In this document: piece by piece, positions 1 to 6,571 of the stretch
Layout: each line of letters starts with the position of its first letter
How positions within the stretch are numbered: position 1 is the stretch's first letter
Source: a virus
Lineage: Duplodnaviria; Heunggongvirae; Uroviricota; Caudoviricetes
DNA length: 6,571 nucleotides
Reading direction: 5' to 3' (one strand)
IMG/VR virus record: IMGVR_UViG_3300012089_000069
Span: 1 to 6,571 of that record
Position numbers and translations under genes: made by a program
Notes under the pieces: generated by a model
Databases searched by the model: none
Seen by the model: only the letters and a program-made list of their open reading frames with translations
What the model was told of the DNA's origin: nothing

Positions 1-51
1 AATCGCTTCCGGCAACTCGTGAGTAAAAAGATTCGGTATCAGAAGAGGTGA
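1..51 (+). CDS. 3' end of an upstream gene (partial; 5' end outside window), C-terminal peptide NRFRQLVSKKIRYQKR
   Basis: Frame 1 is open from position 1 to TGA at 49-51. The stop lies 2 nt before the ATG at 54 of the next gene, a coupling-type arrangement. Too short to assign a product. Confidence 0.3.
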   Translation, partial: NRFRQLVSKKIRYQKR

Positions 52-53
52 GT

Positions 54-1124
54 ATGGCTAACGCCTGGCTCAGATTATGGCATGACATGCCAAATGACCC
101 TAAGTGGCGAACAATTGCCAGGGTGTCAGGGCAGCCAATTGCAACAGTGATGGCAGTGTATATCCACCTCCTGGTGAGCGCGTCACGAAATGTCACGCGA
201 GGTCACATTGATGTCACGACAGAAGATTTGGCAAGTGCGCTCGACGTGACAGAAGAGGTAATTGATTCAATTTTGCAGACGATGCAGGGGCGGGTACTTG
301 ATGGTGATTTAATCACTGGATGGGAAAAACGCCAGGTGCTTAAAGAGGACAACGGCAATATTTCGCAAACCGCAAAATCTCCTGCAGAGCGCAAGAGGGC
401 GCAGCGAGAGAGGGAAAGAAAGCGGGAACAAAATGGCGATTGTCACGGCGCGTCACGAAATGTCACGCACATGTCACGACGAGTCACGACAGATAAAGAT
501 ACAGATAAAGATACAGATCAAGAAGATCAAAACACTATGGTCCATGGCGTAAAAAACGCCACGGACCAGGCAGGGGATGTTCAGACCGTCACTCCTGGCC
601 AGCCCGCAGGCACGACACCGGAAGCCGATTCAGCGTATGTGCTGAAAGCCGATTCGGGCGCTGTGCAGCAGGTGATGACCGCAAGGCAGGAGCAATCACA
701 CCAACTTCAGCAGCCTGAAGCCGATTCCGCCATTCAGCGGGAAGCCGATCGGGTAGTCCCGGAAAACACCGGGCAGCCTGTGGGACGAGTGGATTATCCT
801 GATGTGTTCGAACAGGTCTGGCGGGAATACCCGTTGCGTGCCGGGGCAAACCCGAAGAAATCCGCTTTCAGTGCCTGGAAAGCCAGATTACGCGAGGGGG
901 TGCCACCAGAGGCCATGCTGGATGGTGTGAGGCGTTACGCAAGATACCTGGCGGCTACCGGGAAAACGGGAACGGAATTTGTTCAGCGAGCGACGACGTT
1001 TTTTGGACCGGACCGGAATTTTGAAAACCCCTGGCTGCTCCCGGTAAGCGGCACGAACAACCAGCGTTGTGTGAATCATATTTCTGAACCGGATACCGAA
1101 ATTCCACCGGGCTTCAGGGGATAA
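54..1124 (+). CDS. Phage replication initiator / replisome-organizer-type protein with intragenic origin iterons
   Basis: Long ORF; ATG at 54 is preceded by AGAGGTG (the track's GTG at 48 is less likely). The N-terminus (MANAWLRLWHDMPNDPKWRTIA...) resembles phage replisome-organizer N-terminal domains. The C-terminal region (FEQVWREYPLRAGANPKKSAFSAWKARL...FENPW) resembles DnaD-like C-terminal domains of phage initiators. Two iteron clusters sit inside the ORF and translate to the repeated peptide ASRNVT(R/H)...VTT, as with lambda ori inside gene O. Family assignment is from memory, not a search. Confidence 0.7.
   Translation: MANAWLRLWHDMPNDPKWRTIARVSGQPIATVMAVYIHLLVSASRNVTRGHIDVTTEDLASALDVTEEVIDSILQTMQGRVLDGDLITGWEKRQVLKEDNGNISQTAKSPAERKRAQRERERKREQNGDCHGASRNVTHMSRRVTTDKDTDKDTDQEDQNTMVHGVKNATDQAGDVQTVTPGQPAGTTPEADSAYVLKADSGAVQQVMTARQEQSHQLQQPEADSAIQREADRVVPENTGQPVGRVDYPDVFEQVWREYPLRAGANPKKSAFSAWKARLREGVPPEAMLDGVRRYARYLAATGKTGTEFVQRATTFFGPDRNFENPWLLPVSGTNNQRCVNHISEPDTEIPPGFRG
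178..250. repeat. Iteron cluster 1: GTCACG/GTCACA copies starting at 182, 192, 202 and 213, plus an inverted copy CGTGAC at 245-250
   Basis: Direct repeats at 10-11 bp (one helical turn) spacing, read directly from the sequence. The 21-mer GCGCGTCACGAAATGTCACGC at 178-198 recurs exactly at 448-468. Confidence 0.65.
442..488. repeat. Iteron cluster 2: five GTCACG copies starting at 442, 452, 462, 473 and 483 (probable ori core)
   Basis: Five direct hexamer repeats with 10/10/11/10 bp phasing inside the replication gene, immediately followed by an AT-rich tandem repeat. Confidence 0.7.
491..530. repeat. AT-rich tandem repeat (AGATAAAGATAC x2, then AGATCAAGAAGATCAA); candidate DNA-unwinding element next to the iterons
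   Basis: Exact 12-bp tandem duplication at 491-502 and 503-514, then a related A-rich stretch. It translates to the low-complexity linker DKDTDKDTDQEDQ. Confidence 0.5.
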
Positions 1125-1164
1125 GTGTTGATTTCTGGTCATGAGGTAATTTTCAGGAGGACTT

Positions 1165-1587
1165 GTGGCAAAAGTTTTTACACAAGAAGAGCGAGAAAAA
1201 ATTAAAGGGCAGGTTGTTGAACTCGTACGCCAGAGTGGGCGTGAGACGTTACGGCAACTGGAAGTCAAGACAGGTGCGACAAGATATCTGATGAGCGTTC
1301 TCGCAAGAGAGCTGGTTGCCAGTGGCGATGTATACAACTCTGGTTACGGGTTATTCCCGTCTGAACAGGCGCGTAAGGACTGGCAAAATGCCCGTAAAAA
1401 GCTCTCAAGGGCAAAGCCGAAGAAAACATCTGCGGTTGATCCGGACCTTATCTGGTCATTACCAGATGGCGAAATACGCCGCTACGACAGGCGTCTGAAC
1501 ATAATCTGTCTCGAGTGCCGGAAGAGCGAAGTTATGCAGCGCGTACTGGCGTTTTATCAGGGGAATTTTGAGGAGGTGGTGCGGTGA
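1165..1587 (+). CDS. Hypothetical small phage protein (nin-region-like), 140 aa
   Basis: ORF with GTG start at 1165 preceded by AGGAGG (1155-1160). Its TGA stop overlaps the GTG of the next gene (GTGA). No motif recognised. Confidence 0.55.
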   Translation: MAKVFTQEEREKIKGQVVELVRQSGRETLRQLEVKTGATRYLMSVLARELVASGDVYNSGYGLFPSEQARKDWQNARKKLSRAKPKKTSAVDPDLIWSLPDGEIRRYDRRLNIICLECRKSEVMQRVLAFYQGNFEEVVR

Positions 1588-1838
1588 GTGAATCAAAATG
1601 CCAGGTTAATGGCAACAAGATAGAACCATGTGCAGCACTGGCAAAGTCCCTTGAGCATGATGCTGAATACACGATGCGAAAAGGTCTGCTGATATACAAA
1701 ATCTGGAATGAGAGTTTAACTCGCGGTCCTAATTTTGTGATGTTGCGTTCCGGTGAATTTTCTAAATTACCAGTTCGGGTTTCATTTTGTCCGTTCTGTG
1801 GTGAAAGTCTGAAAACGTGGGAGAACAGAAATGAATGA
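1584..1838 (+). CDS. Hypothetical small protein with four Cys (C6, C16, CPFC at 69-72), possible zinc-ribbon
   Basis: GTG start at 1584 overlaps the upstream stop (GTGA); AGGAGG at 1571-1576. Its stop overlaps the next start (ATGAATGA). Confidence 0.55.
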   Translation: MSESKCQVNGNKIEPCAALAKSLEHDAEYTMRKGLLIYKIWNESLTRGPNFVMLRSGEFSKLPVRVSFCPFCGESLKTWENRNE

Positions 1839-2142
1839 AATCAAAGAAATACCAGTAGTACGTGATGAATATGGCTGCTGGACGCATCCTGAATATGAAA
1901 AATTCTGTGACGGTCGGGAATATATTTCAACGGAAGAGTTTAACGCCTGGATGGAGGAAAATAATCTTCAATACGTCCTCTGCTTCAGAGATGAAGGATG
2001 TGCTGACCTTGATGCGTGTGATGCTGATATTTCTGCATGGGAACCGGAACGACCAGAGGGCAATGGATGGTTTATTGGTTCAATACATGACACCGAAGAT
2101 GGCCCGGTTTGTGTATGGCTGAGAAATAAGGCCGAAGCATAA
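1831..2142 (+). CDS. Hypothetical acidic Cys-containing small phage protein, 103 aa
   Basis: ATG at 1831 overlaps the upstream stop by 8 nt. The ORF ends where the AT-rich region begins. No motif recognised. Confidence 0.55.
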   Translation: MNEIKEIPVVRDEYGCWTHPEYEKFCDGREYISTEEFNAWMEENNLQYVLCFRDEGCADLDACDADISAWEPERPEGNGWFIGSIHDTEDGPVCVWLRNKAEA

Positions 2143-2247
2143 AGGCTATAAACCGACTAACAACTAAATACTGAAGATTTAAATCAGAAACGATTTTTAT
2201 TAAATCCTTAACCGGAGGGATTCCTGCACCCTCAAATCATCAGGAGG

Positions 2248-2263
2248 CCGCCCGAAAGGGCGG
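2248..2263 (+). promoter_or_regulatory. GC-rich stem-loop (CCGCCC-GAAA-GGGCGG) immediately upstream of the RBS of the Q-like gene
   Basis: Perfect 6-bp GC stem with a GNRA-type loop. No U-tract follows, so it is not a canonical intrinsic terminator. GGAG at 2265-2268 and ATG at 2275 follow directly. Confidence 0.3.
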
Positions 2264-2274
2264 TGGAGATAATA

Positions 2275-2796
2275 ATGGGAATAACTAAAGAACGATTGTT
2301 GGAAATAGCAAACCTTAGTGATTGGGCATTAAGTGATGAGAGAATTGTTTCTCCTCATGCTTATGAGTCAGTTACAAGTATAGAAATAACAACAATGGCT
2401 AGAATGCTGCTTGGTTATTTCAAAATAGAAAATAAAAAACAGATGGATAGTAATGTTGATATATGTGAGATTTTAGACGATTGGGGGGCTTGGGTTGTGG
2501 CTGGTAATAGTTCTATTGATTGGCAGGAAATAGCTGATAAATATAAAAATGTTGTTCCTCATGGTAAAAAATCACGTCGTCAGTGCAGCAATGATGAAGG
2601 GCGAATTATTGACATTAGTATCCTTATGTTAGAAAGATATAAGCAACAAGAATATGAGTTAATTGTTGCTCATTTCGTGATTGGTTTATCTCTTCGTGCT
2701 ATTGCAAAGCAACAAGGATGTTCAGATGGAACAATTCGTAAAAGATTGCAAAAAGCCTTAGGTTTTTTGACTGGATATATAGCAATTACCAGTTAA
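2275..2796 (+). CDS. Q-family late-gene antiterminator-like protein (phage 21/82-type Q; QuuD-like) with sigma-70 region-4-like C-terminal HTH
   Basis: ATG at 2275 with GGAG 6 nt upstream. The protein has a WGAW motif, SRRQCSNDEG, and a C-terminal GLSLRAIAKQQGCSDGTIRKRLQKALGFL. These match my recollection of E. coli DLP12 QuuD (ERWGAW ... SRPQCCDDD ... CSDGYIGKRLQKAEG). An alternative internal start at 2443 (MDSNVDICEILDDWGAW) would give a QuuD-length protein. The gene is AT-rich compared with the flanking phage genes. Confidence 0.65.
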   Translation: MGITKERLLEIANLSDWALSDERIVSPHAYESVTSIEITTMARMLLGYFKIENKKQMDSNVDICEILDDWGAWVVAGNSSIDWQEIADKYKNVVPHGKKSRRQCSNDEGRIIDISILMLERYKQQEYELIVAHFVIGLSLRAIAKQQGCSDGTIRKRLQKALGFLTGYIAITS

Positions 2797-3434
2797 GAGT
2801 CAGCGGTTTTTTTACCAGTGTAATGGTATAAGGATACTCCCATGTGTCTTACATGATATGGAAGCGCTGTTGCTGGATGCTTTGTGATACTCTTAAAGCG
2901 GAGGGGAGAGCCTTCCGCTTCAATTTCTGCGTCCGAAACGGTCGTAGAGAAAAATTCTTTCCATTCATTGAATTTTACTGCTGATTTGTCAGACTTTATA
3001 TAAATTAGAATTCCTCCATGATCGTCACGTGACGTACCCGTGCCGTAACGTTCGGTTAGCTGAATCCAGCCATTATGAATAGATTTGGGGCCTCTCCATA
3101 ATTTTGCTTCACCGATCCATTCGAATTTTCCGAATTGATGTTTAACTAATAAATCAACGTGACCGCCATGTTGAGTATCATGTTCAACATCATAAAACCT
3201 ACCTTTCAGGAAATTTTTGATCGACGCTGTTAGCTCGTCCTCTCCCCACTTAGCATCTTGATAGAAGTGTTTGTCATTTTCTAAATTCTGAATAGCGTCG
3301 TCTAAATCTTCATAGAGTTGCTTTACAAAAATATTTTTGTCTGCAGCTAATTTTCTTTGAACCATTCCCCTAAATTCAGGATCCATTCTAATTAATGATT
3401 GAAGGTCTGCAGTACAGATGTTTACATCACTCAT
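2793..3434 (-). CDS. Third gene of the minus-strand operon: putative PD-(D/E)xK / Mrr-like restriction-endonuclease-fold nuclease, 213 aa
   Basis: Likely start is the ATG at 3434-3432 (MSDVNIC...), which overlaps the upstream stop as ATGAGTGA. The track's longer N-terminus has no RBS and lies inside the upstream gene. Motif GGHVDLLV-x10-EWIGEAK (D94, E109, K111) fits D...(D/E)xK. The stop codon shares 2 nt with the stop of the convergent Q-like gene. Confidence 0.6.
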   Translation of the reverse strand: MSDVNICTADLQSLIRMDPEFRGMVQRKLAADKNIFVKQLYEDLDDAIQNLENDKHFYQDAKWGEDELTASIKNFLKGRFYDVEHDTQHGGHVDLLVKHQFGKFEWIGEAKLWRGPKSIHNGWIQLTERYGTGTSRDDHGGILIYIKSDKSAVKFNEWKEFFSTTVSDAEIEAEGSPLRFKSITKHPATALPYHVRHMGVSLYHYTGKKTADS

Positions 3435-3855
3435 GCAGACTCTCCAAAAGACTCGAAGGAGTAAAGTATGGATAAAGATACTGGCTAAAATTATCAACCA
3501 ATTCGCCAGTTTCTGGATGGTAAAAACTTCCTGTGTCTAAAGCATAGGAAATAAGATCATCTTCAACTGGTATTGGTTCTTCCGTTAAATTATCAATGTA
3601 TTGAAAATGCATATCCAATAGATGTGCTTTATAGCTAGATAAATAATCAGTTGCTTTTATTAGCAGGATATAGTCATCTTTCGTATCAGTTAGATAGGTT
3701 AAACCATTGATAAGGGTTTTGTATGTAAAGTGATTGATATTTTTAGCATCTTTACTAACCAGAAAAAGAAAAAGATCACGACACACACTGCGAACAGGAT
3801 CATTAAAATCCTGCTCTATTTGCGTGATAATGTCGTGATATATACTCTTTTTCAT
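3427..3855 (-). CDS. Second gene of the minus-strand operon: small acidic protein of unknown function, 142 aa
   Basis: ATG at 3855-3853 overlaps the stop of the upstream gene (ATGA). The protein is D/E-rich with no recognisable motif. AT-rich codon usage matches its neighbours. Confidence 0.6.
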   Translation of the reverse strand: MKKSIYHDIITQIEQDFNDPVRSVCRDLFLFLVSKDAKNINHFTYKTLINGLTYLTDTKDDYILLIKATDYLSSYKAHLLDMHFQYIDNLTEEPIPVEDDLISYALDTGSFYHPETGELVDNFSQYLYPYFTPSSLLESLHE

Positions 3856-4943
3856 TTATGGCCTGATGATCTCGCTCTTCTTTTCTCTTCACAGGACTTA
3901 ACAGAATCCAATATTTTTTCAACAATAAATATAATCGAATCAATGTTGTTACAGTTCTTCGCAATTGCTTCATGCAACCTAATTCTAGGATTATCAAGCA
4001 TTGTCCTTTTTCCTGGTAATATTAACTCTACTGATAAAATATGTGAAGAACTTTGTGGTAAATCCCAAATTTTTCCCAACTTAAACTTTGTCAATATTGG
4101 GCTTGCGGACTCTCCACTATGATGGTAAACATCTTGACGCAAACACTTTTGACTTGGTTTGAGTTTTAAAGAACTTGTATTGCCATCTGAGGTGATAAAA
4201 GATACATGAGAAATTCTGCCATCTACTTTTTCGTAAAGATCTTGTATTGAACCAAATAATTCAAGAGGATTGTTTAAAATAACGCCAGCTTCTTTTTTTA
4301 TAAATTTAGCCACAAGGTATTGTTGAGGCTGTGATTCACTTCTTGGAAGGATAGATAAATCAATCGTAAGAATTAATATTTTTTCTGCAGGCATTAGCAT
4401 GATGGTATTAAAGCATTGCGTGACTTGGCGTGTTTTGCATTTTATTTCTCCACCATTAGCACGTAATTCCATACCCGCATCGCTAAGATGTGTTGGGTCA
4501 AGCTCTATCACTTCAGTGTAATACGCTTTGGATAAAAAAACAGCAGTGTCAATTTGTTTATCACGAATGATATCTTGACGTAGTTCAGCAAAATGCAGCT
4601 CAGTATCAGCAACTAACAGCTCCTCTCTGGATAAAGGAGTTGGGTATTTTTCTGAGAAGGGGCTATTGTCCTTTTTCTGATTTGTGAAAATTGTTTGTAA
4701 TTTTGCTACGTCTTCATCGGTGATTCTATAAATAGAAAGTAATCGATTCCCGCTAAAAATTAAACCTTTCCAGAAATCGTCGATTCTGTCTTTTAGGTCG
4801 GGATTATGCTGAACTACACTATTTACACGTTCAATAAAAAGGGGTAATCCTTGGGCCGTTACACCCAGTGATGAACCAAGAAGCTTACGGGTGTTGCGCC
4901 AGCCAAAGCGTGAATTGATGTTTTTTACTGTTTGCTCAAGCAT
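3852..4943 (-). CDS. :: First gene of the minus-strand operon: 363-aa protein of unknown function, a candidate sensor or specificity component
   Basis: Long ORF. The probable start is ATG at 4943-4941 with AAGGAA 6 nt upstream; the track start at 4949 is a GTG two codons earlier. No Walker A, methyltransferase or obvious HEPN/TIR motif seen. The C-terminus is basic (KRRARSSGHK). Confidence 0.6.
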   Translation of the reverse strand: MLEQTVKNINSRFGWRNTRKLLGSSLGVTAQGLPLFIERVNSVVQHNPDLKDRIDDFWKGLIFSGNRLLSIYRITDEDVAKLQTIFTNQKKDNSPFSEKYPTPLSREELLVADTELHFAELRQDIIRDKQIDTAVFLSKAYYTEVIELDPTHLSDAGMELRANGGEIKCKTRQVTQCFNTIMLMPAEKILILTIDLSILPRSESQPQQYLVAKFIKKEAGVILNNPLELFGSIQDLYEKVDGRISHVSFITSDGNTSSLKLKPSQKCLRQDVYHHSGESASPILTKFKLGKIWDLPQSSSHILSVELILPGKRTMLDNPRIRLHEAIAKNCNNIDSIIFIVEKILDSVKSCEEKRRARSSGHK

Positions 4944-4949
4944 TAACAC

Positions 4950-5100
4950 TTCCTTAATTTTCCCTTAACAATTTAGGGTGCTAAACTTTTTTGCGCAGTT
5001 TACATAAAAAAATAGTGCGTACGCAAAAACTATCTAACATGATGAGCTTTAACCGGGAAATTTGTATATGTTGTGAGCATAAAGTTGGCTGAGAAATCTA
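4950..5100 (-). promoter_or_regulatory. Probable promoter/operator region of the three-gene operon, containing the perfect palindrome TGCGTACGCA (5016-5025)
   Basis: AT-rich non-coding DNA upstream of the first operon gene. Only weak sigma-70-like hexamers can be picked out by eye. The 10-bp palindrome is a candidate operator. Confidence 0.3.
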
Positions 5101-5289
5101 AAACGGGTAGAATGACTGCGGGTGCTTGAGGCTATCTGTCTCAGGCATGAACACCAAAAGGCAGATAGAGAAAAGCCCCAGTTAACATTACGCGTCCGGC
5201 AAGACGCTTAACATTAATCTGAGGCCATATCTATGCTCTACACACGTAGGTTAGCCTCTTACGTGCCGAAAGGCAAGGAGAAGCAGGCT

Positions 5290-5445
5290 ATGAAGCAGCA
5301 AAAGGCGATGCTAATCGCCCTGATCGTCATCTGTTTAACCGTCATAGTGACGGCACTGGTAACGAGGAAAGACCTCTGCGAGGTACGAATCCGAACCGGC
5401 CAGACGGAGGTCGCTGTCTTCACAGCTTACGAACCTGAGGAGTAA
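5290..5445 (+). CDS. hokD: Hok/Gef-family type I toxin (small membrane host-killing peptide), 51 aa
   Basis: Peptide MKQQKAMLIALIVICLTVIVTALVTRKDLCEVRIRTGQTEVAVFTAYEPEE carries the Hok signature (CLT...LVTRKDLCE...EVAVFTAYE). As I recall it, this matches E. coli HokD/RelF. AAGGAG at 5274-5279. The track's upstream in-frame ATG at 5233 is unlikely to be the true start. Confidence 0.85.
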   Translation: MKQQKAMLIALIVICLTVIVTALVTRKDLCEVRIRTGQTEVAVFTAYEPEE

Positions 5446-5513
5446 GAGACCAGGCGGGGGAGAATCCCTCGCCACCTCTGATGTGTCAGGCATCCTCAAC
5501 GCACCCGCACTTA

Positions 5514-5539
5514 ACCCGCTTCGGCGGGTTTTGTTTTTT
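5514..5539 (+). terminator. Rho-independent terminator downstream of hok (ACCCGC-TTCG-GCGGGT followed by TTTTGTTTTTT)
   Basis: Perfect 6-bp GC-rich stem with a TTCG loop and an 11-nt T-rich tract, read directly from the sequence. Confidence 0.75.
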
Positions 5540-5611
5540 CCTGGCATTCTGGTTTACAATTCGCACGCCAGCCTGAACAACTGGCACCTGCTGCGCCAGC
5601 AGAGACAACCG

Positions 5612-5884
5612 ATGGCGCACAAAACCAAATTTCACAATTCTGATACCGCCCTTGCCATCCGGCATGGGCGGCGTTCACACGCATTTAAAACCGACTGGTA
5701 CCAACACCCACCATGTACTGAAGAACAGGCCGAATGGCTAATTCATAACTACCGCAGACGCGGATACGAGATTAAGAAAGCCCTCAGCCTCGATTATCGT
5801 CACTGGATAATCTTCGTCAGGCTCCCTTATTCCGAACGCCCACCGCGTCCGTCCCGCACATTCCAGCAACGCATCTGGAGGTAA
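5612..5884 (+). CDS. Small basic prophage protein, possibly Rem-like (by synteny with the hokD-rem-ydfU order in E. coli Qin prophage), 90 aa
   Basis: ATG at 5612 is more plausible than the track's GTG at 5483, which would overlap the hok terminator. Its stop is 1 nt before the next gene's GTG. Identity is inferred from gene order only. Confidence 0.5.
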   Translation: MAHKTKFHNSDTALAIRHGRRSHAFKTDWYQHPPCTEEQAEWLIHNYRRRGYEIKKALSLDYRHWIIFVRLPYSERPPRPSRTFQQRIWR

Positions 5885-5885
5885 C

Positions 5886-6571
5886 GTGCGGGTATTACTT
5901 CGACCTGTTCCGGTACCGGAACTTGGGCTGGTGGTGCTAAAACCGGGCCGTGAATCCATGCAGGTATTTCATAATCCTCGAGTTCTGGTGGAGCCGGAAC
6001 CGAAAAGCATGCGCGGTCTGCCGTCCGGAGTCGTTCCTGCCGTTCGCCAGCCATTGGCGGAGGATAAATCATTACTGCCATTTTTCAGCGATGAGCGGGT
6101 GATTCGTGCTGCTGGTGGTGCTGGTGCACTGTCTGACTGGCTGTTACGCCACATTAAATCCTGCCAGTGGCCTCATGGTGACTACCATCACAGCGAAACC
6201 GTCATACATCGTTACGGTACCGGTGCAATGGTGTTGTGTTGGCACTGCGACAACCAGCTGCGTGACCAGACTTCCGAATCACTCGGGCAGCTTGCTCACC
6301 AAAATTTGTCAGCATGGATGATTGACGTCATACGCCATGCAATGAATGGCACGCAGGAGCGGGAATTATCGCTGGCTGAATTATCCTGGTGGGCAACCAT
6401 AAATAACGTAGCGGACGCACTACCGGAGACGGTATTACGTCGTTCTCTGGGGTTACGTGCGGAAAAAATCCGCTCGGTGTACCGCGAAAGCGACATCATA
6501 CCGGGAGAGCAGACAGCCACCAGCATCCTGAAACAGCGCACAAAAAATCTTGCGCCGCTGCCTCACGCCCA
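5886..6571 (+). CDS. Cys/His-rich prophage protein, YdfU/DUF968-like (partial; 3' end outside window)
   Basis: Frame is open from GTG at 5886 to the window end (228 codons, no stop). Contains a CQWPHGDYHHSETVIHRYGTGAMVLCWHCDN metal-binding-like cluster. Synteny after hok matches Qin prophage. Not in the ORF track because it has no stop inside the window. Confidence 0.6.
   Translation, partial: MRVLLRPVPVPELGLVVLKPGRESMQVFHNPRVLVEPEPKSMRGLPSGVVPAVRQPLAEDKSLLPFFSDERVIRAAGGAGALSDWLLRHIKSCQWPHGDYHHSETVIHRYGTGAMVLCWHCDNQLRDQTSESLGQLAHQNLSAWMIDVIRHAMNGTQERELSLAELSWWATINNVADALPETVLRRSLGLRAEKIRSVYRESDIIPGEQTATSILKQRTKNLAPLPHA

Follow-up and report, generated by a model that had tools for sequence, protein, structure and literature searches.

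A prophage-borne operon of the DS-21 anti-phage family ends in a predicted PD-(D/E)xK-fold nuclease gene

What does the last gene of a three-gene operon in a lambdoid Escherichia coli prophage encode, and what might the operon do? The locus lies in a stretch of 6,571 nucleotides (nt), positions 1 to 6,571 of the IMG/VR virus record IMGVR_UViG_3300012089_000069 (hereafter the window), on whose minus strand three overlapping genes, here called geneA, geneB and geneC, are each annotated 'hypothetical protein'. A preliminary description of this DNA had picked out a PD-(D/E)xK motif in the terminal gene, geneC (2793..3434, minus strand, 213 amino acids), had likened it to the catalytic core of Mrr and had proposed a DNA-cleaving effector. 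Our analysis places the operon in the family of DS-21, a published anti-phage system, and geneC in the PD-(D/E)xK nuclease superfamily. From sequence, a structural model and analogy with DS-21, we consider it probable that geneC encodes a catalytic nuclease and serves as the effector of a defence operon of the DS-21 type.

The minus-strand translation of window positions 3102-3161 is HVDLLVKHQFGKFEWIGEAK, which corresponds to geneC residues 92-111. The whole 25-residue peptide that had been singled out, HGGHVDLLVKHQFGKFEWIGEAKLW, covers residues 89-113 (3096-3170) and extends slightly beyond that interval. The peptide is indeed present in the last gene of the operon, and the residue numbers given for it are right for the 213-residue reading: D94 is encoded by 3153-3155, E109 by 3108-3110 and K111 by 3102-3104, with a spacing of 15 from the aspartate to the glutamate. 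In the list of window open reading frames (ORFs), no plus-strand ORF of at least 40 residues overlaps the site. The choice of start codon concerns positions 3387-3434, where the RefSeq entry (WP_001380433.1) begins the protein at M17 rather than at the ATG at 3434, giving 197 residues and shifting the motif to D78/E93/K95. We prefer the 213-residue start because homologues align from M1 and because DS-21 shares the 8-nt overlap of this gene with the one upstream.

Taken as a bare pattern, the motif is weak evidence, within what chance produces: a loose 'hydrophobic-D-hydrophobic ... (D/E)xK' pattern was found in 15.7% of 5000 shuffles of the geneC protein. Despite this chance rate we count the motif as real, because its residues are conserved and the structure fits. 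Across 33 homologues, with identities down to 27%, G91, H92, D94, W106, G108, E109, A110, K111, Q125, L126 and Y130 were invariant in every member. In a larger set of 191 members, E65, G91, D94, E109 and K111 were 100% invariant, and Q125 and Y130 were each kept in 190. This larger set was drawn from an exhaustive profile search, which gave about 990 clusters for the geneC family as against 45 from a word-index search, an undercount. The same alignment bears on the first acidic residue of the site, for which a glutamate in the sequence YDVEHD (E84) had been put forward. That assignment did not hold up, as E84 is variable (E in 50, S in 47 and T in 44 of the 191 members), whereas E65 (3240..3242, minus strand), in the sequence GEDELT, is present in all of them. 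Being invariant and standing at the N-terminus of the core helix, E65, not E84, probably provides the active site with its first acidic residue.

An AlphaFold2 model of geneC, built on the family alignment, reached a predicted local distance difference test score (pLDDT) of 91.8 and a predicted template-modelling score (pTM) of 0.88. In it, an N-terminal bundle of helices (residues 8-58) precedes the alpha-beta-beta-beta-alpha-beta core that a nuclease of this superfamily would have. By DSSP assignment on the model, the nuclease core runs from residue 65 to residue 146 (2997..3242, minus strand) and comprises a helix at 65-78, strands at 82-88, 91-98 and 105-112, a helix at 116-130 and a strand at 139-146. 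D94 lies on beta2, E109 and K111 lie on beta3, and E65 sits at the start of the helix, as is typical of the superfamily. The hairpin formed by beta2 and beta3 (residues 91-112; 3099..3164, minus strand) carries G91, H92, D94, W106, G108, E109, A110 and K111. Q125 (3060..3062, minus strand) belongs to a QLxxRY motif on the helix 116-130 that follows beta3 and aligns with the 'QNLYQL' stretch of McrC; it is a possible additional contact to the active site or the substrate. Together, conservation and model support an active centre made up of E65 ... D94 ... E109-x-K111, with H92 and Q125 nearby, as the predicted site of catalysis.

The solved folds nearest to the model are the type II enzymes BamHI, OkrAI, BstYI and BglII, plus McrC; structural-neighbour scores included 8.0 for McrC, 7.6 for CdiA-CT EC869 and 7.0 for HamA. 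When the geneC family was compared with E. coli McrC by hhalign, D94 and E109-A-K111 fell on D244 and D257-A-K259, in an alignment that is itself weak (E 0.0027, probability 11%). The D244/D257/K259 motif of McrC is said to have been found catalytic by Pieper and Pingoud in 2002. The original identification of a restriction-endonuclease-fold active site is thus upheld by residues invariant in 191 of 191 members, by a modelled core of the kind that had been named, by the register shared with McrC and by a published HHpred result on the DS-21 homologue. At the level of fold, membership of geneC in the PD-(D/E)xK nuclease superfamily is well supported by sequence and model. The core of the earlier effector-nuclease call for the terminal operon gene is likewise supported, with cleavage itself as a prediction.

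Family databases placed the protein less readily. It belongs to PHROG 9664, a family without an assigned function, and UniRef labels it 'Restriction endonuclease'. A profile of the geneC family matched PDB sequences only through chance hits to Rab GTPases, and when each sequence in the geneC and geneB alignments was compared with Pfam, the matches were scattered and sub-threshold, among them PDDEXK_9 in 2 of the 33 geneC members (E 0.018). PADLOC matched no named system, and geneC matched the candidate PDC-S54 weakly (E 0.0016).

The link to an experimentally studied system came from the peptides WIGEAK and HDTQHGGH. Searched for in the supplements of PMC13092281, they led to a homologue of geneC (P0014, WP_001557682.1), the third protein of DS-21 (working id TOXO), an anti-phage system of three genes that comes from an ECOR strain of E. 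coli (DeWeirdt, Mahoney & Laub, Science 2026, PMC13092281). By BLASTP, the window proteins A, B and C are 51%, 54% and 60% identical to their DS-21 counterparts over nearly their full length. The two operons have the same gene order, nearly equal protein sizes (365/140/211 residues in DS-21 and 363/142/213 in the window) and the same 8-nt overlap between the second and third genes, and the equivalents of D94, E109 and K111 are identical. The window operon differs in being a diverged allele found elsewhere, in a Rac-like prophage slot beside a Q-family gene. As judged by sequence, it belongs, as a diverged member, to the DS-21 family of anti-phage systems, a kind of system that was already known, as was its PDDEXK annotation.

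Phages Bas1 to Bas13 of the BASEL collection are T1-like Drexlerviridae. Expressed from its native promoter in E. coli MG1655, DS-21 lowered the plating of Bas1 by a factor of 10^4.48 and that of Bas11 by 10^2 (PMC13092281, Tables S6-S8); Bas3, Bas9, Bas67 and T3 formed small plaques, and the system is listed among those validated and is marked as replicated (PMC13092281). We read the window operon as a defence system because this homologue, 51/54/60% identical to it, protects against phage. The published HHpred annotation assigns protein 3 of DS-21 to PDDEXK through PF18742 (DpnII-MboI; probability 0.96), protein 2 to DUF5939 (0.94) and to a winged helix-turn-helix domain (0.8), and residues 16-48 of protein 1 to HeH/SAP (0.64), and an HHblits column gives LmuA_effector_PDDEXK at 94.7 (PMC13092281). 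The main text of that paper never discusses DS-21 individually and gives no mechanism, and its account of the system includes neither an RdgC-like fold for protein A nor fusions of the nuclease domain to STAND proteins. Our literature search found nothing on the window accessions, on DS-21 by name or on RdgC in phage defence; the system may also go by a further name. In passing, we note that the 'EXK position' and 'D position' columns of Table S8 look shifted, because the values 109-111 and 94, which fit DS-21C, stand on the row of PDX1, a 487-residue protein whose domain lies at 333-474 (PMC13092281). Table S9 contains both 'DS-22C' and a single-protein 'DS-21', which suggests that the numbering of systems is off by one between tables (PMC13092281).

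Homologous cassettes, which we counted at about 11 independent loci, show how closely the three genes are tied to one another. The A-B-C order, with all three genes homologous and overlapping, was found in settings unrelated to one another: in Vibrio parahaemolyticus, in two metagenome lineages, in Enterobacter and in an Alteromonadaceae genome. In a distant lineage it adjoins DUF499 and HipA genes. Sequenced temperate phages carry distant versions of the full cassette as well: Stx1a-converting phages (C about 32% identical), such as Stx1_499 (LC567825.1), with the cassette at 2541-4648, and Moraxella phage Mcat13, where the genes at 1925-4082 are unannotated.

The departures from this arrangement are of two sorts. 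At locus L014 (3743-5630), a two-gene variant, a 423-residue protein precedes the nuclease; its residues 348-419 match geneB residues 63-136, and its N-terminal 300 or so residues are unrelated to geneA. Elsewhere the geneC domain (profile positions about 28-215) forms the C-terminal module of STAND proteins of 712-1226 residues, following a NACHT/NB-ARC NTPase and HEAT/TPR repeats (P0087, P0101, P0105, P0110, P0112, P0113, P0115 and P0206). An effector placed after the repeat region is unusual in a STAND protein. These variants fit a design, read from sequence, in which C would serve as a portable effector that docks on the C-terminal half of B, with an interchangeable sensor upstream. One STAND protein with the geneC domain (locus L011, 5001-7931) stands alone and adjoins a PIN/DUF433 pair. 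An apparent A-B-C fusion of 347 residues (P0295) was rejected as evidence of fusion; it is cut short at either end and resembles a frameshifted gene call on a short-read assembly.

The two upstream genes lie on the minus strand with geneC. GeneA (3852..4943) encodes 363 residues from the ATG at 4943, which is preceded by the ribosome-binding site AAGGAAG (a GTG at 4949 is an alternative start), and overlaps geneB by 4 nt (ATGA). GeneB (3427..3855; PHROG 11490) encodes an acidic protein of 142 residues with an isoelectric point (pI) of 4.6, and overlaps geneC by 8 nt. Searches of both proteins against Pfam, NCBIfam and PDB sequences gave nothing significant. For the geneA model, RdgC was the best match by two methods, with the difference that geneA additionally has three helices at its N-terminus and a long helix at its C-terminus; we regard it as a predicted sensor or DNA-binding component with an RdgC-like fold. 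GeneB is a predicted adaptor or regulator, for which the DUF5939 assignment published for DS-21 protein 2 was not reproduced with HMMER.

The window is a 6.6-kilobase part of a lambdoid (Rac/Qin-like) E. coli prophage, 100% identical to the O145 strain RM9154-C1 and 99.9% identical to the enteropathogenic E. coli (EPEC) O127:H6 strain E2348/69. Early phage genes lie on its plus strand, as does a small gene of the 'antiterminator Q family' (2263-2796). The operon is oriented opposite to every flanking phage gene, has a GC content of 33-38% against 50-57% in the flanks, and occurs in just 14 of 5426 complete E. coli genomes; it is a horizontally acquired, low-GC cargo cassette in a lambdoid prophage. 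The slot that it occupies, between the Q-family gene and a hok/sok locus (2263-5120), is a variable cargo site. In related Rac-like prophages the slot holds a different, likewise reverse-oriented two-gene operon encoding a 352-residue 'nucleoid-associated protein' and a hypothetical protein of 477 residues; what these prophages have in common with the window is limited to the Q-family gene's first 350-422 nt. The type I toxin-antitoxin locus hok/sok (5120-5445, plus strand) comprises the sok RNA (5120-5295; Rfam RF01794, 117 bits) and the hokD ORF, which ends at 5445; it lies just upstream of the operon start and is divergent from geneA.

At the other end of the cassette, geneC on the minus strand and the Q-family gene on the plus strand meet tail to tail, their stop codons overlapping at 2793-2796. 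The consensus scan found no terminator-like site between the two genes or after geneC. Because the stops overlap with no terminator between them, the transcripts of the two genes would run antisense into each other. A convergent placement recurs in seven Stx1a-converting phages, in which the A-B-C cassette directly follows Q in the opposite orientation, with stx1AB on its far side. This placement, antisense to Q-dependent late transcription, suggests that prophage induction could silence the cassette.

How might such a system work? In a lysogen, the three translationally coupled proteins would form a latent complex. On infection, A, which combines an RdgC-like fold with a helical N-terminal region that may bind DNA, would recognise a sign of infection, for example phage DNA, a phage protein or an intermediate of replication or recombination, and the small acidic B would link A to C through its C-terminal half. 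Once freed or activated, C would act as a metal-dependent nuclease, most probably on DNA, and phage replication would stop either directly or through death of the infected cell, with degradation of the phage DNA or of all the DNA in the cell. The specific roles given here to the partners, A as sensor and B as coupler of A to C, are tentative and somewhat less likely than not. A more elaborate modular version seems doubtful: A would be an RdgC-like DNA clamp or horseshoe that detects the ends of phage DNA or intermediates of its replication and recombination, B would contribute its C-terminal half as a dedicated docking adaptor, C would be a portable effector carried also by NACHT-HEAT STAND sensors, and induction of the host prophage could silence the cassette by convergent transcription and so spare the prophage's own DNA.

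Several observations weigh against the reading of geneC as a nuclease effector with A and B as its partners. Some PD-(D/E)xK folds cut RNA or merely bind DNA, and HMMER-level searches of geneC against Pfam, NCBIfam and PDB sequences gave no significant match. H92, D94, E109 and K111 should lie on one face of the model, a clustering that is read from the register of the antiparallel hairpin 91-98/105-112, with residue 94 opposite 109 and residue 92 opposite 111. The likeness of geneA to RdgC is one of fold, with template-modelling (TM) scores of 0.32-0.38 and root-mean-square deviations (rmsd) of 6.8-11 A; geneA has no Pfam match to the RdgC sequence family, and hhalign of the A family against E. 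coli RdgC gave a probability of 0.5%. The adaptor role proposed for geneB comes from a single fusion variant, and upstream of geneA the consensus scan detected no promoter. The window operon, whose proteins are 51-60% identical to those of DS-21, may differ from it in phage range or even in activity. Finally, the catalytic mutants made in the published study were of DS-2, 3, 5, 6, 8, 9 and 11, not of DS-21 (PMC13092281).

Among the other explanations, one would make geneC a restriction endonuclease that works alone, whether of the Mrr/type IV or of the type II kind: C itself would recognise and cut DNA that is modified or has a specific sequence, with A and B as unrelated neighbours. Its nearest solved folds, the type II enzymes and McrC, and its UniRef label point in this direction, but we consider the explanation very unlikely. 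The Mrr-like catalytic core that had been proposed at the outset was not borne out. Mrr and geneC have the superfamily fold and a D...(E/Q)xK motif in common; no Pfam match to the Mrr profile was found for the window protein at E<=1, Mrr_cat was absent from all 33 members, as was any other restriction-endonuclease family in Pfam, and hhalign against EcoKMrr gave a probability of 0.9%. Nor does geneC have the N-terminal winged-helix domain of Mrr, or any separate DNA-recognition domain that we could detect, since residues 1-60 are all-helical and match no helix-turn-helix family. Mrr is moreover a single polypeptide, whereas geneC is conserved alongside two partner genes, both of which accompany it at every standalone locus examined except L014. 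On these negative profile tests we rejected an Mrr or type IV identity. The BamHI-like enzymes BamHI, OkrAI, BstYI and BglII are 8-14% identical to geneC in sequence, with no similarity at the profile level, and have no counterpart to its N-terminal bundle or to its obligatory partners A and B. With no methyltransferase in the operon, among the window ORFs or in the 20-kilobase annotated region, type II restriction-modification was also rejected. Against McrC (348 residues), geneC is much smaller, and no P-loop or AAA family match that would mark a McrB-type AAA+ GTPase was found in geneA or geneB; McrBC was rejected because the operon lacks McrB. Lamassu and Hachiman were compared in the same way. 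The PADLOC models for these systems, those for LmuB and LmuC among them, match none of A, B and C; the operon has neither an SMC-like LmuB nor a HamB helicase, geneA folding like RdgC and not like an SMC ATPase, and Lamassu was rejected for want of an SMC-like LmuB.

A different possibility is that the operon is a toxin-antitoxin or abortive-infection module that mainly maintains the prophage, with C as nuclease toxin, B as antitoxin and A as regulator, so that loss of the prophage or a shut-off of host expression would free C and kill the cell. B is small and acidic and is encoded directly upstream of C, to which it is translationally coupled; CdiA-CT toxins are among the structural neighbours of geneC; and the cassette adjoins hok/sok here and HipA or PIN toxin-antitoxin genes elsewhere. 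Many defence systems behave like toxin-antitoxin or abortive modules, and this explanation overlaps with the one that we favour. As a distinct account we nevertheless find it unlikely: three genes, not two, have been kept across distant taxa, with A the largest and always first, the C domain is fused to STAND sensors that have no B-like partner, and the DS-21 homologue gives phage-specific protection, not general toxicity. Less probable again, and to our minds scarcely tenable, is a role in DNA metabolism that benefits the phage, in which an RdgC-like protein and a structure-specific nuclease (a resolvase, or a RecB- or Cas4-like enzyme) would act in recombination, replication or excision, or in which C would be a non-catalytic DNA-binding fold. 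The orientation of the operon against its phage neighbours, its foreign GC content, its rarity among E. coli genomes and the unrelated cargo in the same slot of related prophages all speak against such a role, as does the protection that DS-21 gives against unrelated lytic phages when it is cloned outside any prophage; that the predicted catalytic residues never vary is hard to square with an inactive fold. Our preferred reading remains that of geneC as the probable nuclease effector of a DS-21-type defence operon.

Among the nuclease modules of defence systems, PD-(D/E)xK effectors are the most common, and the picture of bacterial immunity is unchanged by this result. What it adds is more local. 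Beyond the published description of DS-21, the analysis points to an RdgC-like fold for A, to a nuclease domain that also occurs at the C-terminus of NACHT-HEAT STAND proteins, with the C-terminal half of B recurring in a two-gene variant, and to the siting of cassettes downstream of Q antiterminator genes in convergent orientation, also in Stx1a-converting phages. E65, D94, E109 and K111 are pinned down as the candidate catalytic residues. In EPEC E2348/69 and in several Shiga toxin-producing E. coli (STEC) strains, three 'hypothetical proteins' can now be assigned to an experimentally validated anti-phage system.
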